Part shown: piece by piece, positions 3,201-43,759 of the stretch
Numbering within the stretch: position 1 is the first letter of the stretch
How the letters are laid out: every line of letters begins with the position of its first letter
Source of the DNA: a virus
DNA: 64,000 nt
Direction: 5' to 3' (one strand)
Virus record (IMG/VR): IMGVR_UViG_3300032116_000102
Coordinates: 21,560 to 85,559 of that record
Notes under the pieces: generated by a model
Databases searched by the model: none
The model's input: only the letters and a program-made list of their open reading frames with translations
What the model was told of the DNA's origin: nothing
Translations under genes and position numbers: made by a program

Positions 3201-3407
3201 ATGGATCATCGCACAGATATGATTATGCGAGCTGTTGTAACTTCCATTGCAATCCTTGGATTTCTGCTTCTCACCTATGCAATTGTTGAGAGCAATTCTG
3301 AACCTGTAGAAAAGTTTAAAGTTGTAGATAAATACAAGAATTGCAACGTAGTCAGATACACTGATCCCAGTAATCAATGGCACTACCTACTGCACTGCGG
3401 TCTATGA
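3201..3407 (+). CDS. small membrane protein
   Basis: Single hydrophobic segment. Confidence 0.5.
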   Translation: MDHRTDMIMRAVVTSIAILGFLLLTYAIVESNSEPVEKFKVVDKYKNCNVVRYTDPSNQWHYLLHCGL

Positions 3408-4042
3408 ACGTTCAACTCATTTGGTCTACACCCAATGCAGAAGAAATGATTACGAGAATGGCGCGTGTTTCAGCACCCAGCAATCAAGACAACATGGATA
3501 CTGCACCACGCCTACTTAGGTATCTGATCAATAACAAACATTGGTCACCGTTTGAGATGGCAAACATGTGCGTTGAGATTGAAACAACACGTGCAATCTC
3601 ACCTCAAATCTTGCGTCATCGTTCCTTCTCGTTCCAGGAATTCAGCCAGCGCTATGCAGATACCACTGAGCTTGGCTCTGCTGTAATACCGCATTTGCGT
3701 CGGCAAGATTACAAGAACAGACAGAACAGTATTGATGACCTATCAGCAGAAGACATTGCTTCTTATTACAGACGCATCAGTGCGTTGTATGAAGATGCTG
3801 AACATCTCTATCGCGAGATGCTAAGCAACGGCGTGGCAAAGGAATGTGCTCGTTCCATTCTGCCACTTTCGACACAGACACGTCTTTTTATGAATGGCAC
3901 AATCAGGTCATGGATCCACTACCTTGATCTCAGAACTGACAATGGAACTCAACTCGAACACAGACAAATTGCAGGAGAAATCAAACGAATCTTCTGCAAA
4001 CAATTCCCCATCATCGGAGAAGCAGCCTTCTCCGAAGAATGA
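3404..4042 (+). CDS. thyX: FAD-dependent thymidylate synthase ThyX
   Basis: RHRSFSFQEFSQRY signature; HWSPFE; AKECARSILP. Confidence 0.95.
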   Translation: MNVQLIWSTPNAEEMITRMARVSAPSNQDNMDTAPRLLRYLINNKHWSPFEMANMCVEIETTRAISPQILRHRSFSFQEFSQRYADTTELGSAVIPHLRRQDYKNRQNSIDDLSAEDIASYYRRISALYEDAEHLYREMLSNGVAKECARSILPLSTQTRLFMNGTIRSWIHYLDLRTDNGTQLEHRQIAGEIKRIFCKQFPIIGEAAFSEE

Positions 4043-4246: not shown

Positions 4247-4399
4247 TCATTTGATTTGACCTCCGGTGACATATGGAAAGTAGCAGATGTTACGGTACGT
4301 CAGGCAGAGCCAGGGGCGGTGGGCTAAGTTCCACCAGGCCCTGTCTGCCTTGGCCTGATCCTCCTGTTCGTACTTGACACCACGGTATGTAAGCGTCAT
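4247..4399 (-). CDS. DUF4278-like small cyanobacterial protein
   Basis: MTLTYRGVKY start with an internal LTYR repeat. Confidence 0.7.
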   Translation of the reverse strand: MTLTYRGVKYEQEDQAKADRAWWNLAHRPWLCLTYRNICYFPYVTGGQIK

Positions 4400-4667
4400 T
4401 ATTCTGTAGCGGTTTATACGGAAAGTATATGACCGTTGCTGTATATGATGTCGTTCACCACGTAACACAACCATGATTTCAATTTCTAAAACTTGCACAG
4501 AATTCCGTAAAGCCTTGGGCTTTAAGGGAAGACTCATGTTATTTGTCCTTGGTTTTGTAGGTCTTCTCTTCCCTGGTTGGGTAGCCTATGTTGTCATCGC
4601 TGGTCTAGCCAAGTGCACCAAGGATCAAGACATGTTTAAGTTCTTAGTACAATTTGCTGATTGAACC

Positions 4668-4823
4668 ATGACTGAAGAACAGCTTGATGCTTTACGTCAT
4701 CTAATCCAACAAGAGATTAACTGTGCCCAAATTGATGGCATGGAACATGGTGTCTGGGGCTGGGCAGAAAAACAACTAGATGAAGGATGGCAAGACTTGA
4801 AAGATAGTTTTAAATCCACCTAA
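4668..4823 (+). CDS. hypothetical protein (51 aa)
   Basis: MTEEQLDALRHLIQQEI...; stop overlaps the first cassette site. Confidence 0.5.
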   Translation: MTEEQLDALRHLIQQEINCAQIDGMEHGVWGWAEKQLDEGWQDLKDSFKST

Positions 4824-4848
4824 GTTCTACACACTACGAGGTTCACCA

Positions 4849-5208
4849 ATGACTCAACGACACCCAATCACTCCGCCGCCTGAGCTTGTACAGCAGTGGC
4901 TTGGCACCTACTTCGGTGCCACCGTTACTGGTGAAGTAAGCGATGTTGAGCTTGCTCTTGCCACCCAATCCGCCCGCTGGGGCGCTGATCAGGAGCTGGA
5001 GGCGTGCTGTGAGTTGCTGAACTGTGAACTTGGCACTGGCTGGGGGCATGGAACCAAACTCCGCGCCGCCCGCCGCCCCAAGCCGCCGAGCTTGAAGGAG
5101 CAGGCGCTAGGTGCCCTCTATGCCATAGCCACAGGCGCTGATGACACTAGAGAGTTTCACCAAGACCTTGAAACCATTAAGCAAGCTCTTGAATCCCTGC
5201 CCGATTAG
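4849..5208 (+). CDS. cassette gene, hypothetical (HPITPPPELVQQW type)
   Basis: GC-rich ORF between two sites. Confidence 0.7.
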   Translation: MTQRHPITPPPELVQQWLGTYFGATVTGEVSDVELALATQSARWGADQELEACCELLNCELGTGWGHGTKLRAARRPKPPSLKEQALGALYAIATGADDTREFHQDLETIKQALESLPD

Positions 5209-5232
5209 TCAACATCACTACAAGGTTCAACA

Positions 5233-5619
5233 ATGACTCAAAAACAATCACCTACACAGGCAGAGCCAACAGACAAAGAGCTGGCAGAGCTGTACCGCAA
5301 ATCCTATTACGAATGCGAAGACAGACAAGGTGATGCGGCGCAAGTATTTGCGCTACGTGCTGTTCTCGCCCGCTGGGGCAACCATCCGGAATCTCCAGGT
5401 AGTTCAACGCCGCAGCCCATCCCAGTGAGTGAGCGCCTGCCAAGACCGGAGGATTGGGATGAAGAAGGGAGGTGTTGGGGTTTTCACCAGTACAACCCGG
5501 AAGACGACGACATTTGGGAATCTTGGTATTTAGTACCAACTCAACACCTGTTGCCTTCTGTCCAATGGCTGGGCTTTTCCCACTGGCTCCCCGCCAACGC
5601 TTTGCCCCAGCCCTCTTAG
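5233..5619 (+). CDS. cassette gene, hypothetical (PIPVSERLP...HWLP type)
   Basis: ORF between two sites. Confidence 0.7.
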   Translation: MTQKQSPTQAEPTDKELAELYRKSYYECEDRQGDAAQVFALRAVLARWGNHPESPGSSTPQPIPVSERLPRPEDWDEEGRCWGFHQYNPEDDDIWESWYLVPTQHLLPSVQWLGFSHWLPANALPQPS

Positions 5620-5631
5620 TCCGATCAACTA

Positions 5632-5913
5632 ATGAAACTTGAAATCAAGCTCACCGATGAGCGCTACAAGCATACAAGCATTGATGAGCCCGCTGAAATG
5701 ACCACCACTTGGGAAGCCGAGATGGATGACTGCTCAGTTCACGCTTGGTTCAAAGTGTTTGAGAGCGTGCTCGGTGCTGCTGGCATGACCGAAAAGCTGA
5801 TCATGCGCGGCGCTTGCCAGCTCGCCTTTAACGAGTGCCGCGACTTTGAGGAGATGAAGAAGCTGAGCAGCGACTACGACCTTGACTTCAGCGACAACGC
5901 TGCTCCCCAGTAG
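5632..5913 (+). CDS. cassette gene, hypothetical
   Basis: ATG directly abuts the site; stop TAG lies in the next site. Confidence 0.7.
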   Translation: MKLEIKLTDERYKHTSIDEPAEMTTTWEAEMDDCSVHAWFKVFESVLGAAGMTEKLIMRGACQLAFNECRDFEEMKKLSSDYDLDFSDNAAPQ

Positions 5914-5928
5914 TCAGACCCACTACTT

Positions 5929-6225
5929 ATGAAAGGATTTAGTTCAACACAAAAACACACACGTTCATCTAGTTATTGGGTGGCAGCGTATGTTAAAGAT
6001 AATGACGATGAACCAATCAACATTCACAAAAAGATCTTGATCTATAAACAAGGTCAAGACAAAGAAGCATTGATGACAAACTATTGTAACTCCATCATGA
6101 AGATCAACAGAAACATATGGGAGATCCTGGTGCACCAGGGACCATCTGAGATCCCAGACTCGGGTGATCAGATTGTGATTCGTTTATCCCGTGAACCATT
6201 CAAGGGCTCTCACATCCTGAAGTAA
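5929..6225 (+). CDS. hypothetical protein
   Basis: 98-aa ORF. Confidence 0.55.
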   Translation: MKGFSSTQKHTRSSSYWVAAYVKDNDDEPINIHKKILIYKQGQDKEALMTNYCNSIMKINRNIWEILVHQGPSEIPDSGDQIVIRLSREPFKGSHILK

Positions 6226-6244
6226 TAGTCCCGAACGGGAAGAT

Positions 6245-6272
6245 GGACCTGAGCACGTCCTTAAACTACTCA
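6245..6272 (+). promoter_or_regulatory. leader pseudoknot motif, copy 1
   Basis: GGAC-CTGAGCAC-GTCC-TTAAAC-TACTCA. Confidence 0.6.
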
Positions 6273-6305
6273 TTAGTTTTATTTATCATTCAATTCATCA
6301 CAATC

Positions 6306-7073
6306 ATGAAACTCCTCAAGTTCTCCAGTGGTAATGCCAAGCTGCGTAATCGTTTGATCTTCAGCCTGCCAGCTGGTTATTCGTGTCCACATGCTGGTGT
6401 CTGCAAGACCATGGCTGATCGGGTCACTGGTGAGATCCGTGACCTGCCTCAGCTTACAGGCACACAAGCAGATGACTACCGCTGCTTTGCTGCTATGGCA
6501 GAGACCAGGCCCAACGTACGTGATGCTCGTTGGCACAACTGGGATCTGCTGCGTGAAACTATCCACATGAACGGCAATCAAGTCACACTTCTCCGTGACC
6601 TGATCGATATGTCCCTCTTGATGCACGCACCAAAACCTTTGGTACGCATCCATGAGTCAGGTGACTTTTGGACTGAGAACTACATGAGGGCTTGGATGAT
6701 GGTTGCCAGGGAACGGCCCAACCAAAAGTTCTACGCATTTACAAAATCATTAGGCATGTGGATTAATCTGCGTGAGCAGATCCCATCCAACTTCTATCTC
6801 ACCGCATCCTTCGGTGGGACACTTGATTACCTCATTCCAAAGTATCCACACGTTTTTCAACGAGTTGCTTATGTGGTTTACACAGAAGCTGAGGCAGCAG
6901 AGCGTGGGCTGGAGATCGACCATGACGACAGCCATTGCTTAGGTGACAAACCGTTTGCACTCCTGGTCCATGGGTCCCAGAGGGCTGGGTCCGACGCAAG
7001 CAAAGCCATCTCTCAACGCAAGAAGGAAGGTGGCTTTGTGGGATACAGCACATCAAAACAAAAGACAACTTGA
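6306..7073 (+). CDS. phage 'gene product 88'-like protein
   Basis: GNAKL..FSLPAGYSCP..C..CFA..VRIHESGDF..FYAFTK pattern. Confidence 0.65.
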   Translation: MKLLKFSSGNAKLRNRLIFSLPAGYSCPHAGVCKTMADRVTGEIRDLPQLTGTQADDYRCFAAMAETRPNVRDARWHNWDLLRETIHMNGNQVTLLRDLIDMSLLMHAPKPLVRIHESGDFWTENYMRAWMMVARERPNQKFYAFTKSLGMWINLREQIPSNFYLTASFGGTLDYLIPKYPHVFQRVAYVVYTEAEAAERGLEIDHDDSHCLGDKPFALLVHGSQRAGSDASKAISQRKKEGGFVGYSTSKQKTT

Positions 7074-7128: not shown

Positions 7129-7362
7129 ATGTCTTACGTCATTGCTGCCTGGAAGGATGGTCGTCCATTCGCCATCACTGCCTGTCAAACTTCTAATCAA
7201 TTCCATTTAATTCCGTTAGATTCAGAAGTAGCTCTGAACAAGATCTTCTCCCACCCATACCGGGCTGGTGCTCAGCAGATCTTGACGTGGATTAACAAAA
7301 ATGACAGCAGCCTTGCCAGTGAAAACCTCCAGGTTCGAGATGAAGCCCAGTTCAGAAAATGA
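7129..7362 (+). CDS. hypothetical protein
   Basis: 77-aa ORF after a TTGACG-N16-TAGTAT promoter-like hairpin. Confidence 0.5.
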   Translation: MSYVIAAWKDGRPFAITACQTSNQFHLIPLDSEVALNKIFSHPYRAGAQQILTWINKNDSSLASENLQVRDEAQFRK

Positions 7363-9166
7363 AAGGTGGTACGTTTTCGATTTGGAAACGAATGGGTTGT
7401 ATGACCAAGCCACCGTGGTTCACTGTGCTGTCCTCTATGACATCAACAGCAACAGCATTTTGTCTTTTGGTCCTGACGACATTGACTCTGCTCTTGAGCA
7501 TTTGCGTAACGCTGATGTTCTTATTGGCCACAACATCTGCTTTTACGATGTACCCGTCCTAAAGAAACTGTATCCAACATTTGAAACAAAAGCTCGCATC
7601 GTTGACACGCTCATCTGTTCACGTTTGATCTGGCCCAAGGAGGTTCTCTATGAGCTTGACATTGAACAATATCCGCAGGTTCCAAAGGCAAACCGTGGAT
7701 CCCCATCGCTTAAGGCCTGGGGATGGCGCTTGGCCAGCCACAAGCTTGACTTCAAGGACTTCACGGAATACTCGCAAGAGATGCTTGACTACTGCATCCA
7801 AGACGTGGTGGTTACCTTCAATCTCTGGCAACTTATTGTTGCGCAAAACTATGCAGAGTCCTCCCTTCTGCTGGAGCACAACTTTGCTTTGGCGATTAAC
7901 AAACAAATTCGATCAGGTGTTCCTTTCGATTTGGATGCTGCTCTTGATCTGGTGGATAGCCTCCGAGCAAAGGAAACACAACTTGAATCACATCTAAAAC
8001 AAATCTTTCCACCTATCAAACATGAATCAACATTTGTTCCTAAGGTAAATAACAAGAACCGTGGTTATGTCAAAGGACAACCTTTCACTAAGGTCAGCTA
8101 CGAAGAGTTCAATCCTGGATCTCGTCAGCAGATTGCTGATCGACTCCGCAAAAAATACGGATGGATTTCAGAGAAAACAACTGAGAAAGGAAATCCAGTT
8201 CTTGATGACGAAGTATTAGAGAAGCTTCCGTATCCAGAAGCCAAAGCATTAGCAGAATATATGTTGGTCAAGAAACGCCTTGGTCAAATTGCTGATGGTA
8301 ACAATGCTTGGATCAAGCTCTTCAACAATGACACTGGTCGTATCCACGGCGACCTTATTACTAACGGTTGCATTACTGGGCGCTGTGCACACCGCAATCC
8401 AAATATGGGTCAAGTGCCAGCGGGTTACTCCCCTTATGGAAAGGAATGTCGAAGTCTGTTCATTCCTCCTGACGGCTGGGATCTCATTGGTATTGACGCT
8501 AAAGCACTTGAGTTACGTTGCCTTGCTGGATACCTTGCCGTCTGGGATGGTGGTGAATACGCAAAGCTGGTAACGGATGAATCCGTTGACATCCATACCT
8601 ACAACCAAAAACAATTTGGGGTAGAGACCAGGGACATTTCTAAGCGTCTGCTATACGGAATGTTATACGGGTGTGGATCTGTAAAAGCTGGTTCGATCAT
8701 TGATCCAAACCTTAAGGATGAAGATGAACTACGTATGCTTGGTCGTAATGCCATCGATGGTTTTATGCGTGGTGTCCCAGCATTGAAAGCTCTTAAGTTA
8801 GAGATCGATAAGACCATTGGCCTGCGTGGTTACTTGATTGGTCTGGATCGTCGTCAGTTGTATTGCCGTTCTGCATTCAAAGGATTAAATGTATTGTTGC
8901 AATCAGCTGGTGCAATCTTAATGAAGCAAGTTGTTATCAACATCCAGAACAATATCAAAACAAACCTTGGCCTGGAATACGATCACGACTGGCAGCAACT
9001 GTTGATGGTGCATGATGAAGTCCAACTAGCATGCAAGCCTCAACACACAGAAGCCATCAGGGAGCAGGCCATGCTTGCCTTCCCGCAGGCACAGGAATTC
9101 TTTGGTTTCCGCTGCAGTATTGAAGGTGATTCCAGGGTAGGATCTGACTGGTCGCAGACCCATTAA
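7340..9166 (+). CDS. polA: family A (T7-like) DNA polymerase with 3'-5' exonuclease
   Basis: FDLETNGL (ExoI), GHNICFYD (ExoII), DAKALELR (motif A), SKRLLYGMLYG (B), MVHDEVQ (C). Confidence 0.95.
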   Translation: MKPSSENERWYVFDLETNGLYDQATVVHCAVLYDINSNSILSFGPDDIDSALEHLRNADVLIGHNICFYDVPVLKKLYPTFETKARIVDTLICSRLIWPKEVLYELDIEQYPQVPKANRGSPSLKAWGWRLASHKLDFKDFTEYSQEMLDYCIQDVVVTFNLWQLIVAQNYAESSLLLEHNFALAINKQIRSGVPFDLDAALDLVDSLRAKETQLESHLKQIFPPIKHESTFVPKVNNKNRGYVKGQPFTKVSYEEFNPGSRQQIADRLRKKYGWISEKTTEKGNPVLDDEVLEKLPYPEAKALAEYMLVKKRLGQIADGNNAWIKLFNNDTGRIHGDLITNGCITGRCAHRNPNMGQVPAGYSPYGKECRSLFIPPDGWDLIGIDAKALELRCLAGYLAVWDGGEYAKLVTDESVDIHTYNQKQFGVETRDISKRLLYGMLYGCGSVKAGSIIDPNLKDEDELRMLGRNAIDGFMRGVPALKALKLEIDKTIGLRGYLIGLDRRQLYCRSAFKGLNVLLQSAGAILMKQVVINIQNNIKTNLGLEYDHDWQQLLMVHDEVQLACKPQHTEAIREQAMLAFPQAQEFFGFRCSIEGDSRVGSDWSQTH

Positions 9167-27422: not shown

Positions 27423-28277
27423 ATGGTTGCTAAACTGAATACATCAGATCCTTGGATTCAAGCCAAAGAAGAGCAACCGGAAGTAATGCGGTCGATTAAT
27501 CGGACCGCAGCCAGGATAACACTTAACGGAAAACGTCACTACACAACTCCGTTACCCACTGGACCTGCACCGTCCGTAACCACTATCATCAGCGAGACAG
27601 CTTCCGAAGCAAACAAACGGAAGCTTGAAATGTGGTCGAAAGCAAATCCAGGTGTCAAAGAACAAGCAGCCGAGCGGGGCACTGCCATTCACTATGGTAT
27701 GGAGCAGTACCTCAAAGGGAATAAAACGCCGGAAATCAAAGATGAATATGCGGACTTTTGGGCTGGCATGCCGGCGATTCTGGATCAATTCCAGGAAATC
27801 CTTTGGGCCGAGTCTCCAGTTCTGGATAAGTTTGACTTTACTATTGGTGCTGATGACGTTGCTCGCGTCTGGGGTTGTGACGGAGAAGGACGCGCTTGGG
27901 CTGGTGCTCCTGATATTATTGCTGTGGCTAACAATAAGCTGACGCTTGCTGACTTAAAAACCAGCGTCAAACCCTATAGCCGCAAGTGGCCTAAAGACCT
28001 GGAAAAAGGTTCGCCTGAATGGCGTGATCTCCTCGGGGGTCATCTTAAATTCAAAAAGACTTGCAAACAACTCGCTGCGTATGATATAGCTATTACCCAG
28101 ACATTGGGAATAAAAGTTCAACAAGCAGCAATCCTAGTTTCTACACCAGTAAGAACTCAGGTTTTTAAAATATCACGCAGGTTCTTAGACTCTTTGCATG
28201 AAGATTGGTACAAAATTGTTGAAGAGTATTATGCGCAAATAGAAAATTGCAATGCGTATGACCCTGATCTAATTTAA
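27423..28277 (+). CDS. PD-(D/E)XK exonuclease
   Basis: PSVTTII..RGTAIH..AGAPD..ADLKTS..QLAAY. Confidence 0.85.
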   Translation: MVAKLNTSDPWIQAKEEQPEVMRSINRTAARITLNGKRHYTTPLPTGPAPSVTTIISETASEANKRKLEMWSKANPGVKEQAAERGTAIHYGMEQYLKGNKTPEIKDEYADFWAGMPAILDQFQEILWAESPVLDKFDFTIGADDVARVWGCDGEGRAWAGAPDIIAVANNKLTLADLKTSVKPYSRKWPKDLEKGSPEWRDLLGGHLKFKKTCKQLAAYDIAITQTLGIKVQQAAILVSTPVRTQVFKISRRFLDSLHEDWYKIVEEYYAQIENCNAYDPDLI

Positions 28278-28280
28278 AAA

Positions 28281-28775
28281 ATGCAAAACAAAGTCTGTAC
28301 AATTTGCAAAGAATTAAAAGATTTGTCTTGCTTTAGCAAAGCGGGCAGAAAAGACGCTTTACGTAGTAATTGTAAAACTTGTGACGCTAAAAAGTATAAA
28401 GAATGGAAAAATAAAAATAGAACAAAATATCTACGTAGTTCTAGTAATTCTGGATTAAAAATACGATATGGAATCGGGCTTGAAGAATATGAAAAACTTT
28501 TAGCGCAGCAAAACCATAGCTGTAAAATTTGTGGAACAAAAAAACCTGGCAGAAAAGATGTTAAAAGATTTGCTGTAGATCATTGCCATAAGACAAACAA
28601 AATCAGAGGCTTGCTTTGCATGGCATGCAATACTGCAATAGGACTGTTAAACGAAGACCCAAAACTTTTTGATGCTGCTCAAAACTATTTGAGAGAGCAT
28701 CGAGCAGACCCTTGGTATGAAAGTACAACAGGCGGCAATCTTGGTATCGACGCCTGTTCGTACTCAAGTCTTTAA
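28281..28775 (+). CDS. endonuclease VII-type homing endonuclease
   Basis: CKICG..VDHCH..IRGLLCMACNTAIG; AT-rich. Confidence 0.9.
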   Translation: MQNKVCTICKELKDLSCFSKAGRKDALRSNCKTCDAKKYKEWKNKNRTKYLRSSSNSGLKIRYGIGLEEYEKLLAQQNHSCKICGTKKPGRKDVKRFAVDHCHKTNKIRGLLCMACNTAIGLLNEDPKLFDAAQNYLREHRADPWYESTTGGNLGIDACSYSSL

Positions 28776-37944: not shown

Positions 37945-38967
37945 TTAATAATCCCATCTGACTCGAGGCTTTCCTTCTCTCATTCCCAAATGCAAGAACC
38001 CCTTTGGAGCGCCGTATCCAACTGAGTACGGCCAATTTTTATCGCACCAGGCTTGCACCTTATAGATATCGACTCCCTCAATGTAAAAATCTATCGCTCC
38101 TTTGGAGGGCGCATTGTAAGTGTGCTCGCTATTTTTTGCTCCTCCAACTTGTGTATTGATGGGTTCTGGACGTGATGCACTTGTAATGATTAACGGTTTA
38201 TTTCCAAATGCAGTTCTAACTTTCTCAAGAAATCGACAAAGCTCCAAGGCTGTATCGCATTGATACTGTTTACTGAAACGACGCGCCTCCTGGTTGAGTG
38301 TTAATTCTCCGTAAGTAATGTGAGGGGTGATCTTATATGTAAAAGGGCTCCAAGGATTAAACTTTGGTTTCTCAACTGGTTTAGGTGCTGGTTCAGCTGG
38401 TTTGTTTCCGGCAGTACCAAGCTGCCGATCCATGATCTGAATTAATTTTGTGCTGTATTCAGGATCGGTGGCGTATTTTTCCTTTACTAAAAACTGCGCA
38501 CACTCATTCCTTGTCTTTGCTCTATTAACACCTTGATATGTACTGAAGTCTTTATACCAACGATCTACAAGGTAGTAAATGCAGGTCTTGAGATCAGGAA
38601 AGTCAATGAACCCAGCTTTGATTGTGACCCATTGACCGTTAAGGAATTCCTGCGTATTGACGCTTGTGCCAGATCCTTTTAAACCAAATGCGTTCCAGGT
38701 ACCTGAGAAATGCTGACCCCAGCCTGATTCAAGTGCCCATTGTGCTGCAACAACTTCAGGGAATTTGGCTCCTGCTTCTTTTGCTGCTGCTTGAACACCG
38801 GCCCAATTATTTTCAATTTTAGGTTGCGGTTTAAGAGAAGCTCGGTATTTAGTAGCAAAAGACTCCAAAACCTCAGAAGAAATCTGAGACTGGAGCCAGT
38901 TCCAAGCATCAATCTGATGGTTTTCTTTTTTAAAAAATTCAGCAGCGTCTGTTAGTTTAATTGACAT
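37945..38967 (-). CDS. endolysin: GH73 glucosaminidase plus peptidase M15A
   Basis: AQWALESGWG..NAFGLKG..YATDP; ITSASR..N..VGGAKNSEH..AID..FLHLG. Confidence 0.85.
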   Translation of the reverse strand: MSIKLTDAAEFFKKENHQIDAWNWLQSQISSEVLESFATKYRASLKPQPKIENNWAGVQAAAKEAGAKFPEVVAAQWALESGWGQHFSGTWNAFGLKGSGTSVNTQEFLNGQWVTIKAGFIDFPDLKTCIYYLVDRWYKDFSTYQGVNRAKTRNECAQFLVKEKYATDPEYSTKLIQIMDRQLGTAGNKPAEPAPKPVEKPKFNPWSPFTYKITPHITYGELTLNQEARRFSKQYQCDTALELCRFLEKVRTAFGNKPLIITSASRPEPINTQVGGAKNSEHTYNAPSKGAIDFYIEGVDIYKVQAWCDKNWPYSVGYGAPKGFLHLGMREGKPRVRWDY

Positions 38968-39590: not shown

Positions 39591-40445
39591 TCAAAGCTCA
39601 GGTATTTCATATTCTTTTGTGCTGTTGCAATAGTGTTTGAAAATAATTTCACTTGTGTTTCCGGCCCAAGATGCTACCTGAGGCACGGGAATACCAGCCT
39701 CAATCCAGCGGCTAATTGCAGTGTGTCGACAGTCATAAGGACGATATAAATGCGTAATCAGTTCAGCTTGATAAAAAGGTTGCAACTTTTTGCGAAAGTA
39801 ACTTTGAAAAGCAAGCCTATCCCATGGAAAAACAAAACGATCACTCTGTGGTAATTGCTTTAAAATTTCTTGGCATTTACCGTTTAATGGAACCCAGCGA
39901 CGTTTGTTGGTTTTGGTGCTGTCTTTTAAACCATGTGTCAAGGTGTAGTTTTGATGCACCAGGATTTTATTGTCTTTAATGTCGTCCCAGAGTAATGCGC
40001 GTACTTCTCCGGTACGCATTGCAGTTTGAAGCATAAACTCTGTGTACCAAGCCCAGTTAACATTCTTGTAAGTTAATTTTGCTTCCAAAGCTGCAAGTAC
40101 TAAACCTACTTCGTTGCGTGGAATAACCACGACTTCCTCATCCCGTTGAGGAGCTTTTGGCATTTTAAAACTTGCCAAAGGATTTCTGTTGATGTAAGCG
40201 ACATCTTCTTGTGCTGCCCATTTGTACATTGTTTTTGTGTACATGGCAACGCGCCTAGAAGTAAGCACGGGTTTTTCTCCCAAAATCCAAATCATGATTT
40301 TGCGTGCCTCTTCAAAATCTTGTATGGGGCAGCGTCCCAGCCATTTGGTTACCTGTCTGTAATCTGACGTAAGGCTGGTCGGGCACAAAGAAATTGAACG
40401 CTCTTCGACGAAGGCGTTCCAAAGTTCAGAGAGCGTGGTTGGCAT
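39591..40445 (-). CDS. tyrosine recombinase, 284 aa, no arm-binding domain
   Basis: TAMRTGEV (R), KTNK (K), RPYDCRHT, WAGNT, FKHY (Y); upstream TTGACA-N17-TAGTGT promoter. Confidence 0.9.
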   Translation of the reverse strand: MPTTLSELWNAFVEERSISLCPTSLTSDYRQVTKWLGRCPIQDFEEARKIMIWILGEKPVLTSRRVAMYTKTMYKWAAQEDVAYINRNPLASFKMPKAPQRDEEVVVIPRNEVGLVLAALEAKLTYKNVNWAWYTEFMLQTAMRTGEVRALLWDDIKDNKILVHQNYTLTHGLKDSTKTNKRRWVPLNGKCQEILKQLPQSDRFVFPWDRLAFQSYFRKKLQPFYQAELITHLYRPYDCRHTAISRWIEAGIPVPQVASWAGNTSEIIFKHYCNSTKEYEIPEL

Positions 40446-40634
40446 GATATGAGTTGAGAAGAGCGATACACTAAGACACCACTCTCCTTTTGTCAACCAC
40501 GCACACTGGGGTCAAAGGTCGCTAGCTTTCAACAAATTATAGATGTCCGCAAGTTGATTAGCGACAACTGATGCCCATAGTAGAAAGCAAACAAACCACC
40601 AGTGGATAAGGCTGATTTTGTTCATGGTAAAACT

Positions 40635-41269: not shown

Positions 41270-43759
41270 CTAGGCGGCCTCAAGGGCTGCAACACGAGCG
41301 CGAAGCTGCTGAATCTCAGCGATCAGAAGAGGCACCAACACCTGATGGTCCATTTGCTGGTAGATCGGATTGCCGTCATCATCAACGGCATCTTTTTCGC
41401 CCGTGACACAATAAGGCGCAACCTCCTGCGCCTCGTGTGCAATCAGCATTGGGCGCTCAACGGTCGCGCCATTCATGACGCCTCTGTAAACTTTGAAGGC
41501 ATCAATAGTGGCTCCGGCGTTCTCTAAATCGCCCAAGATGGTCTTAGAGCGATAATCCGAAGTAGTGTTGTATGCAACAACGCCGCCCCCACGGTTGTAA
41601 GTAATGCTGCCTCGTGGGGCATTTAAGTCTGTGGCAAACCTAGAAAAGATCTGATCCCCAGAGGTTTCGTTGCCCCAGATATTGAGAATAGCCGCTGATG
41701 TCGAAGCGTCTGACCTGAGCGCACACGTATTTACGCCTGTCTGGGAAAGCACAGAAAAGGTTGCACTAAGGACGGGGTCAGTAGAGTTAATAACCGTTTT
41801 GCCTGAACTCGTAATTCGCGCCCGCTCAGTCGGGCTGCTCGCTCCGTCGGCGGTAGTGGAGAACACTAATCTCGATCTATGGTTAGATCCAGAAGTCCAG
41901 CTACCGTCTGCGATGCCTTCAATAGATGCGCCAAGATTAGATGAGTTGTCTGTAAAGTAAATTGCGCCAATTCCTGAAGTGCTCGCACTCGGCAAACTGT
42001 CTCGTGAAAGCTGGATGGTGCCATCAACACCGGAAGCAGCGGGGTTTCCTCTAATCACCACCCTTGCATTACTGAGAGTGTTACTAGACGTGCCAACTAA
42101 CAACCTGCCGGAGCTGTCGATGCGGGCGCGTTCTGTTCCTTGTATTCCAAATAGAAGTGGAAATGCCCCACGAGTTTCTAATGTCCCCGTGCCTGCGTCT
42201 GAACGAAGCTCTACGCCCTGCGTATTGCTACTGACACGGATAGTAGAAACACCGGAACGAGCTACCTCTAAGCCATCACCAACACCAAACGCAGGACTAG
42301 TAGTGCCAATCCCTACACGGCCTCCCGTTGTGATGTTTAGAACTTCAGTGTTAGATACTCCTTCATAAAGGCGAAGATTACTAGAACCTGTTCCTCCGTT
42401 CGTGGGAATTAAGCGCCACTGGTTTCCGCCATCTGCCCTGCCGATGTTGATGCCATCATCACCCTTGACATGAAGGTTCCCTGTAACGCTCGAAGTCCCT
42501 ATGCCTACACGGCCTGAGCTGTCGATGCGGAGGCGTTCGAAGCCACCGGTCGCAAACGTCAGAGTATCGGTAGTGCCGTCACTGCCGCCAATCCTCCAGT
42601 TCCAGTTGGTTCCGTCGCCGGAGTAAATGTTGTTGTAAGAGGCGTTTGTCTGCGTGTTCGCAATTAACCTTAGTTCTGTTGCACCGCCCGTGGATTGAAC
42701 TTGTTGAATAACAGTCCCACTCCCACTCACATGGAGTGCGCTACTAGGGCTCGTGGTGCCCACCCCTAGGCGGCCTGAGGAGTCAATTCTTGCTCGCTCA
42801 GTTCCATCTACCTTAAATTGAATAAGACTATTGGCTTGTGTATTTGCCTCATCAGCTTGCAAAAGTAATGCGCCAGTGCTATCTGACGCAAGCGTGGCAA
42901 TACCAAATCCAGGATATGTAAGATTTAATTTTGCCGATGTAGTTGTTGAAAGATCTAGTAGCGTGGCAGGTGAACTAGTCCCCACGCCTACGAGCCCTGC
43001 CGAGGTGATGCGCAGGCGTTCGGTGTTGTTGGTAAACAACATCAGAGCGTTGGCAGTTGGATTGCCAATACGCAATTCACTGGTGCTGTTGTCAGCAAAA
43101 ATTCGTCCTCTGACGGTACCATTTGCCGCAAGGCTTAGCTGACCATTACCAGCGGATCTGTCAATAGTAAGTGTGGATGTACTTCCTACCGCATCATTGG
43201 TAGTTGCACCTACGGAAATGTTGCCATCGCTATTAACAAACAACCTGCCAGACCCACCAGTGCTGATGGCTACTTGGTCCGCACCGGAGGAATAGATTCC
43301 AGTATTTGGGTCCCCGTTGAAACTAATTGACGGGCTTGCTGCCGTACCGCTGGGAACTGAAAGGCTTGAATTAAATACCCCTTGGTTACCACTAATCGTA
43401 TTAAATAGACCAGCATCACCAGAAACGGTGCCACCAGAAACACTAGTGAAAACCCCAGTCGTTGCTGTAAGAGTGGTGAATTGACCAGACGTACCGGTTA
43501 CCGTAGCGCCGGAGATACGACTGGTGAAGGTACCGGAAACACCAGTGATGTTGGTGAATTGCGCAGTACCACCAGTGATAGTGGTGAATTGACCCGCATT
43601 ACCGGTGACGGTAGCACCAGAAACACTGGTGGTAAAGATACCGGAAACACCAGAAATTAACGGTGAACCAGAAATTGCAAGACCACTGATAGCAATGCTG
43701 ACATCACCTGTTGCGGTGTAATAAGTTAAGGTGTCAGCCTTAAGAATTCCGTATGGCAT
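41270..43759 (-). CDS. modular tail fibre with C-terminal S74 intramolecular chaperone
   Basis: Repeated ER(L/A)RI(D/T)SSG.(V/L)G.GT modules; YNTTSDYRSK..LIAHEAQEV..coiled coil. Confidence 0.9.
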   Translation of the reverse strand: MPYGILKADTLTYYTATGDVSIAISGLAISGSPLISGVSGIFTTSVSGATVTGNAGQFTTITGGTAQFTNITGVSGTFTSRISGATVTGTSGQFTTLTATTGVFTSVSGGTVSGDAGLFNTISGNQGVFNSSLSVPSGTAASPSISFNGDPNTGIYSSGADQVAISTGGSGRLFVNSDGNISVGATTNDAVGSTSTLTIDRSAGNGQLSLAANGTVRGRIFADNSTSELRIGNPTANALMLFTNNTERLRITSAGLVGVGTSSPATLLDLSTTTSAKLNLTYPGFGIATLASDSTGALLLQADEANTQANSLIQFKVDGTERARIDSSGRLGVGTTSPSSALHVSGSGTVIQQVQSTGGATELRLIANTQTNASYNNIYSGDGTNWNWRIGGSDGTTDTLTFATGGFERLRIDSSGRVGIGTSSVTGNLHVKGDDGINIGRADGGNQWRLIPTNGGTGSSNLRLYEGVSNTEVLNITTGGRVGIGTTSPAFGVGDGLEVARSGVSTIRVSSNTQGVELRSDAGTGTLETRGAFPLLFGIQGTERARIDSSGRLLVGTSSNTLSNARVVIRGNPAASGVDGTIQLSRDSLPSASTSGIGAIYFTDNSSNLGASIEGIADGSWTSGSNHRSRLVFSTTADGASSPTERARITSSGKTVINSTDPVLSATFSVLSQTGVNTCALRSDASTSAAILNIWGNETSGDQIFSRFATDLNAPRGSITYNRGGGVVAYNTTSDYRSKTILGDLENAGATIDAFKVYRGVMNGATVERPMLIAHEAQEVAPYCVTGEKDAVDDDGNPIYQQMDHQVLVPLLIAEIQQLRARVAALEAA

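Follow-up and report, generated by a model that had tools for sequence, protein, structure and literature searches.

Stop-codon linkers with discrete cores in a fixed order lie at gene-exchange breakpoints in arrays of small cyanophage genes

We analyzed a 64,000-nucleotide stretch (the window) of the IMG/VR virus record IMGVR_UViG_3300032116_000102, corresponding to bases 21560-85559 of a record of 85.6 kb that is rated complete by CheckV, and in particular the short linkers that separate consecutive small genes in one of its arrays. The source is an S-EIV1-like freshwater (lake) cyanophage; the closest isolate is Synechococcus phage S-EIV1 from an arctic lake, with 67% identity between the two DNA polymerases, and the public runs that contain the stretch are labeled freshwater, lake-water and, many times, "fungus" metagenome. 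The array of small accessory genes sits between thyX and the gp88/DNA-polymerase genes (Table 1), an interval that holds about seven open reading frames (ORFs) here vs. a single ORF in S-EIV1, and its location is a hyperplastic region between conserved core genes.

Table 1 Features of the array, of the genes that border it, and of the only tyrosine recombinase gene in the window (positions are those of the window; GC, fraction of G + C)
Feature	Position	Strand	Description
ThyX gene	3377-4042		
sigma-70-like promoter candidate	4374-4402	+	TTGACA-17-CATTAT; 10/12 consensus positions, a consensus match only
ORF, first array gene	4473-4664	+	63 aa; no family; GC 0.41
P0005	4668-4823	+	51 aa; a homologue lies after the AGACCC linker in L077; homologues also occur in T4-like cyanomyoviruses
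Linker 1	4821-4848	+	TAA stop 4821-4823; core TCTACACACT; leader ACGAGGTTCACCA; 15-mer AAGTTCTACACACTA at 4822-4836
P0001	4849-5208	+	119 aa; phrog_32006, virus-only family, function unassigned; GC 0.586
Linker 2	5206-5232	+	TAG stop; TAGTC-AACATC-ACT; leader ACAAGGTTCAACA; 15-mer TAGTCAACATCACTA at 5206-5220
P0002	5233-5619	+	128 aa; no family
Linker 3	5617-5631	+	TAG stop; TAGTC-CGATCA-ACT-A, ATG immediately after; 15-mer TAGTCCGATCAACTA
P0003	5632-5913	+	93 aa; phrog_6458
Linker 4	5911-5928	+	TAG stop; TAGTC-AGACCC-ACT-A; leader CTT; 15-mer TAGTCAGACCCACTA at 5911-5925
P0004	5929-6225	+	98 aa; no family; GC 0.40
Degenerate fifth junction	6223-6242	+	TAA, then TAGTCCCGAACGGGAAG (TAA TAGTCCCGAAC...), then ATG; TAGTC half kept, no ACT
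Gp88-family protein gene	6243-7073		Pfam GP88 match
Family A DNA polymerase gene	7301-9166		
Tyrosine integrase	39591-40496	-	301 aa; generic PF00589 match

An original prediction, made from the sequence alone, had described this locus as an integron-like array of three promoterless one-gene cassettes bounded by copies of one 15-bp site, TAGT-N7-ACTA, and captured in trans by a recombinase gene linked to the tail fibre. Its description of the sites was borne out. All four are present, three as exact TAGT-N7-ACTA and the first with one mismatch; the left arm of each holds or overlaps the upstream stop codon (TAA at the first, TAG at the other three), and 12, 12, 0, and 3 nt, respectively, separate the right arm from the ATG that follows. 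The first two sites do continue almost identically, as ACTAC(G/A)AGGTTCA(C/A)CAATGACTCAA. The enclosed genes are also GC-rich as claimed: GC over 4849-5913 is 0.550, a level reached by only 0.9% of genome windows of equal size; the flanks have 0.440 and 0.467 and the whole genome 0.470, and the single enclosed genes range from 0.54 to 0.59. Exact TAGT-N7-ACTA occurs four times in the window (0.37 expected; none of 100 shuffles reached four), but the enrichment is gone when one mismatch is allowed (20 vs. 14.6, standard deviation = 3.8). We found no evidence to place the fourth exact match, at 41854, in this family; it falls within the tail-fibre gene, its spacer is G-rich, and it is seen again, between homologous flanks, in two other loci (L034, L082). 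Among the approximately 65 same-strand gene junctions of the 85.6-kb genome, only the four consecutive ones listed here carry the motif, together with the degenerate fifth. For the function of the enclosed proteins, Pfam returned nothing, PHROGs only families of unknown function, and the Atlas only viral hypothetical proteins.

A consensus scan found no promoter-like or terminator-like site at any linker and no promoter-like site inside the array, and the promoter candidate upstream of the first array gene was the sole promoter-like site on the plus strand from thyX to the array end. The array genes are therefore probably cotranscribed, and the array would be read as one operon from this upstream promoter.

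The linkers were compared across IMG/VR loci, which are metagenome contigs and were collected in two sets: 80 loci fetched of at least 585 relatives for P0001, and, for the CGATCA core, 80 fetched of at least 116 stretches returned by a scan for TAGTCCGATCAACT. About 55 of the latter 80 are stop-to-start junctions of small genes (a count of sequence contexts), and identical 15-mers recur among the 80 P0001 loci, whose proteins are only about 50% identical. All fetched loci together gave 172 unique contexts where an ORF of 35 or more codons ends at a canonical core. The stop codon was TAG in 162 of the 172 and the left 5-mer was TAGTC in 136; the base 3' of ACT was A in 99 (58%), T in 58 (34%), C in 12, and G in 3, and the next ORF began mostly 1-16 nt past ACT. 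The left arm of the first site was itself variable in relatives (TAGTT, TAGAT, AAGTT, CAGTT), and the core of linker 1 stood, with varying left 5-mers, upstream of P0001 homologues in at least 12 contigs. Because the base after ACT and the left arm vary among relatives, the 15-bp inverted repeat by which the sites had been defined is incidental. The conserved unit is TAG(stop)-TC-N6-ACT followed by a short, nearly G-free leader of 0-16 bases to the ATG.

The N6 positions are occupied by about a dozen discrete cores, namely CTACAC, AACATC, CACCTC, CGATCA, AGACCC (with AAACCC and AAGCCC), ATTACC, GCTTCC, ACCTTC, ATTCCC, and CCCTTC, of which ACCTTC (compare the junction TAGTCACCTT) is present in many fetched loci. 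G content is 4% in the linkers vs. 19.7% in other junctions of the same loci. The generic pattern TAGTC-N6-ACT was considered as a genome-wide signal and rejected: across 21 records it was not above its reversed control, and only specific C-rich cores cluster. None of the canonical cores was found at the junctions of S-EIV1. A degenerate form occurs in the cultured marine Synechococcus phage S-H1 (L225, positions 1-2166 of the record), where two P0001-family genes adjoin thyX and are followed by the linkers TAGGAAACATCACTTCGATCACC-ATG and TAGAACGAACCATCCCACTAACCACC-ATG; this isolate could serve as an experimental model.

To ask how far each core depends on its surroundings, we compared nonredundant occurrences of the same core with 15 nt on each side excluded. 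Neither flank was shared in 60 of 66 pairs for CGATCA, 35 of 36 for AGACCC, and 74 of 105 for AACATC. The cores nevertheless keep an order. In 59 nonredundant arrays, 130 site pairs followed the order CTACAC > AACATC > CACCTC > CGATCA > A[GA][AG]CCC and three were reversed; with CGATCA as the reference, CTACAC, AACATC, and CACCTC invariably precede it, whereas AGACCC, AAACCC, and AAGCCC invariably follow. The order is less strict in a second group of arrays, whose cores are ATTACC, GCTTCC, and ACCTTC. What lies between the cores varies. The CGATCA-AGACCC slot holds P0003 in the window, a gene for a protein with MTQQLSPAA in two loci (L019, L077), and other genes in other loci; the gene after AGACCC is P0004 in the window and a P0005 homologue in L077; and many different cores are found before and after a gene family with MSELSPAA...IADELEAQ. 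In one locus (L042) a P0004 homologue precedes a P0001 homologue, the reverse of the order in the window. The core stays with the slot and does not travel with the gene.

Homology between the window and its relatives begins and ends at the linkers. Two loci (L087, L218) share 99.0% nucleotide identity with the window over exactly 5617-5926, from the first base of linker 3 to one past linker 4, spanning P0003, and their sequence outside is unrelated to the window on both sides; the L087 locus (5.3 kb, GC 0.60) otherwise has only a diverged P0001 homologue (81%) in common with this genome. In L005 and L187, 96% identity runs from 4664 to 5219 and ends directly after ...AACATCACT; in L136 and L019, 94.6% nucleotide identity covers the C-terminal half of P0002 and, with L136, ends 4 nt past linker 3; and in L006, L207, and L165 homology starts at linker 1. 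The endpoints are 4820-4823, 5219, 5617, 5635, and 5926. The linker is the most conserved part: P0001 bodies are 70-74% identical between arrays, vs. 92-100% for the last 36 nt including the linker. Deletion-type arrays were also found, in which the 3' end of P0001 is joined directly to CGATCA (L153, L154, L157, L171, L180) or to AGACCC (L038), and the core CGACCC in L006 reads as a possible hybrid of CGATCA and AGACCC. The original prediction had called for precise presence and absence at the spacers, and homology endpoints do coincide with the sites at base resolution, so the motif is linked to indel breakpoints. The part of the cassette claim that stands is that the sites bound exchangeable one-gene units whose slots hold different genes; integron-like capture is not supported. 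The same cores occur in the same order across many otherwise unrelated cyanophages, with exchange breakpoints at the linkers.

All relatives are metagenome-assembled contigs and some loci are duplicates of one another, as might be expected if the arrays simply shared recent ancestry, or if the mosaics were only apparent and came from mis-assembly at short repeats. However, identical arrangements occur in contigs from different samples (L070, L073, L126, L163; also L087 and L218), and contigs of another public run, possibly the source sample, span 5330-6117 with linkers 3 and 4 without a difference. Furthermore, unrelated flanks of the same linker are not given by shared ancestry alone, and the linkers (14-15 nt) are shorter than usual assembler word sizes, which counts against mis-assembly. 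The public-run contigs are very fragmented here, and joints such as 5220>5356 and 4473>4823 have short sides. We consider ancestry or artefact a very remote explanation of the pattern.

Contig depth gave a separate observation on P0001. Over its conserved core, 4944-5217, summed contig depth was about 10-30 times that of neighboring bins in four metagenome runs from different studies, and many loose contig ends fall at 5059 and 5108, within the gene. The segment 4944-5217 is common to many co-occurring phages.

Homologues of the array genes elsewhere had been expected to bear the same flanks, and homologues lacking the motif to speak against cassettes. The latter is largely what was found. The linker is shared by 18 of 93 P0001 homologues at the 5' side and by 21 of 93 at the 3' side, leaving about 80% without the motif, and linkers are kept in one of 17 P0003 homologues and missing from the other 16. 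P0001 homologues without a linker mostly use an overlapping ATGACTGA junction, and ATGA junctions are also used in linker-less homologues. Because most homologues of the genes are without the motif, it belongs to certain arrays and not to the genes. P0005 offers a side observation: over 4668-4814 its nucleotide sequence matches small genes of S-SZBM1, S-H9-2, and S-RIM32, all T4-like cyanomyoviruses, at 76-80% identity, and the junctions of a T4-like cyanomyovirus homologue (L226) are overlapping, with no linkers. The same small gene is common to very different cyanophage types.

That cores are exactly conserved while the flanking genes drift or are replaced, that their order is fixed, and that the stop codon is almost always TAG would all fit linkers that are sequence-specific cis-regulatory elements, with the cores under direct selection through an RNA- or DNA-binding factor, RNA processing, or pairing with rRNA or a small RNA; breakpoints would then fall at linkers only because recombinants cutting through genes are lost. 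A single factor, however, should give one consensus and not a dozen discrete cores, and the loss of recombinants with broken genes accounts for breakpoints at gene edges only; it leaves unexplained why an identical linker is shared between unrelated flanks. Folding of 55-nt stretches at the sites, as either DNA strand or as RNA, was no better than that of shuffled sequences (z from -1.07 to +1.18), and with no Rfam match at E up to 1 we rejected a hairpin or a known RNA family. No complementary sequence was found elsewhere in the genome, where the minus-strand matches are only the palindromic sites themselves, and linkers are absent from most homologous junctions, where overlapping stop and start codons serve instead. 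We therefore regard regulation through the cores as rather unlikely, although it deserves more weight than the other alternatives weighed here.

Two further candidates were dropped. The sequence TAGTCAACATCACTACAAGG agrees with the T7 promoter at 13 of 20 positions, but a T7-type promoter was abandoned because no match to PF00940, the RNA polymerase family, was found in the genome (the control genomes gave none either), and because the ATG at linker 3 comes directly after ACTA, so that a transcript begun there would miss it. Stop-codon read-through producing fusion proteins is compatible with linkers 2-4 here, which are in frame with the next ATG, but the leaders common in relatives (TCT and AATCACCC) are out of frame, and it was dropped because linker lengths are not consistently in frame across relatives.

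The recombinase on which capture in trans depended lies about 34 kb from the array, between the genes for an endolysin (37945-38967) and the tail fibre (41270-43759). Integrase homologues (60-85% identity) are present in four of 20 related records, and in four of the 14 that are at least 90% complete, while canonical linkers occur in near-complete genomes without an integrase homologue (G001, G002, G005, G015). Sites and recombinase family thus do not co-occur across genomes as had been supposed, and Pfam and PHROGs annotation found no recombinase gene adjoining the array. In integrons, attC is 57-141 bp long, folds as single-stranded DNA, moves with its cassette, and needs an adjacent IntI. 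The array resembles an integron in its promoterless single-gene units in one orientation, an upstream promoter (here a candidate), recombination sites at the boundaries, and conserved ends around a variable center; it differs in that its sites are 15 bp, unfolded, and slot-bound, with no linked or co-occurring recombinase. Capture in trans by the fibre-linked recombinase is accordingly not sustained by its distribution or by the sites. Most simply, the enzyme is an ordinary phage integrase that is not needed for the exchange.

Site-specific exchange could still operate in another form, if the 301-aa integrase in trans, or an unrecognised enzyme, bound the TAGTC and ACT(A/T) arms and exchanged the 6-7-bp core, with only same-core sites recombining, like heterospecific lox/FRT variants or integron attC x attI. 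The geometry of short inverted arms around a 7-bp spacer is suggestive, a tyrosine recombinase is encoded in the genome, the core of L006 may be chimeric, and cores that are identical between partners, heterologous within an array, and kept in order are what overlap-region identity rules would give. Against this, the arms span only 4-5 bp, and just over half of the contexts have a right arm that mirrors the left as an inverted repeat; the distribution of the integrase, the lack of a recombinase gene next to the array, and the absence of attC-like length, fold, or cassette linkage argue the same way, and allowing a mismatch leaves no enrichment of the pattern in the tail fibre. We judge such exchange improbable. 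Marginally more doubtful still is a version in which the linkers are ordered heterospecific docking sites, where a dedicated enzyme recognises TAGTC...ACT and swaps strands across the core, so that co-infecting cyanophages exchange single accessory genes slot by slot; if true, this would be a naturally occurring analogue of recombinase-mediated cassette exchange, separate from integrons, that leaves the array unscrambled.

On balance, and with moderate confidence, we favor linkers that lie between cistrons of an operon, lack a Shine-Dalgarno sequence, and double as recombination joints at which single genes are exchanged by general recombination. A leader devoid of G lacks any Shine-Dalgarno-like run, cannot contain ATG, GTG, or TTG in whatever frame, and is little structured; such leaders may allow a ribosome that has just terminated at TAG to find the next ATG. 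During co-infection, general recombination, driven by homology or microhomology, would cross over inside an identical linker, so that the gene of one slot is replaced and the linker, the order, and the scaffold stay intact. Neighboring linkers differ in their cores, and intervening genes are therefore not readily deleted; rarer crossovers at the shared TAGTC would give deletions. General recombination is favored over a site-specific enzyme because no recombinase co-occurs with the linkers and because the arms are so short, and we propose that recombination needing identical partners accounts for both the letter-perfect cores and their order.

Several points weigh against this reading. A generic unstructured leader, or composition alone, leaves the letter-perfect six-base cores unexplained, and 14 identical bases make a short substrate for classical homologous recombination. 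Neither a single-strand-annealing nor a RecA-type protein was identified, only SSB, an exonuclease, and endonuclease VII being recognised in the genome. Linkers occupy only four or five of the roughly 65 junctions and are therefore not the general expression signal of the phage. Finally, the loci, all from metagenome contigs, were ascertained via P0001 and one linker, which may overstate the uniformity of the arrays.

Elsewhere the window encodes SSB, a primase-polymerase/helicase, an endolysin, a tail fibre, and the tyrosine integrase. An endonuclease VII-family ORF (28281-28775) lies directly 3' of the exonuclease gene (27423-28277). Near the start of the window, an HNH-type ORF (1378-1764) stands between an orphan 5' part of tRNA-Leu(UAA) (about 1349-1377) and an intact tRNA (1747-1824); in two loci (L042, L044) the sequence matching the HNH site continues directly into the tRNA, without the ORF. 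At the other end of the array, the stretch 6226-6310 follows the P0004 stop and reads TAGTCCCGAACGGGAAG ATGGACCTGAGCACGTCCTTAAAC... Because the Pfam GP88 match begins only at residue 28 of the ORF that starts at 6243, the true gp88 start may be an ATG near 6307, which would leave a leader after the array.

Phage genomes are mosaics whose seams have long been proposed to lie at boundary sequences that are rarely visible; here they are explicit at single-gene resolution. The linkers are common to many uncultured cyanophages, mostly from lake samples as judged by the runs holding the stretch, and a degenerate form reaches cultured S-H1. That different linkers follow one another in a fixed order suggests a way for an array to trade genes with other genomes and yet not lose its own by deletion. 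The linkers are also of practical use for locating accessory-gene arrays in metagenomes, and genes for host takeover or counter-defence may be among those that such arrays contain.

The closest described system is that of the promoter-early stem-loops (PeSLs) of T4-type phages (Arbiol, Comeau and Krisch 2010, PMC2839356; Comeau et al. 2014, PMC4122927), for which those studies identified no dedicated recombinase and proposed homologous recombination. Like the linkers, PeSLs are short and conserved, lie between genes, and cluster in hyperplastic regions that separate core genes, where they flank small ORFans, and breakpoints of insertion, deletion, and replacement between relatives fall at the motif. 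PeSLs, however, are a composite of a sigma-70 promoter and a stem-loop terminator that makes each cassette its own transcription unit, and their copies are alike, recombination between them in one genome producing mini-circles. The linkers have neither promoter nor stem-loop; they contain a stop codon, are 14-27 nt long, lie within a probable operon, and form a set of different sequences whose order is fixed. Because no recombinase accompanies them, they are best read as a promoter-free variant of known phage gene-shuffling joints and not an integron. They are also unlike a single repeated stop-codon linker, ACTAAGTAACACTCA, said to occur in a marine cyanophage, in that their cores are heterologous and in conserved order. 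The modular theory, as cited in Pope et al. (2011, PMC3029335), places short conserved boundary sequences at module junctions as proposed sites of homologous recombination, and such sequences are undetectable at most mosaic boundaries (Pope et al. 2011, PMC3029335). As far as that account describes them, the likeness is of a short conserved sequence at a junction whose flanks are otherwise unrelated between genomes; the difference is that here the boundary sequences are explicit, resolve single genes, and form discrete variants in a fixed order that is common to many uncultured cyanophages.

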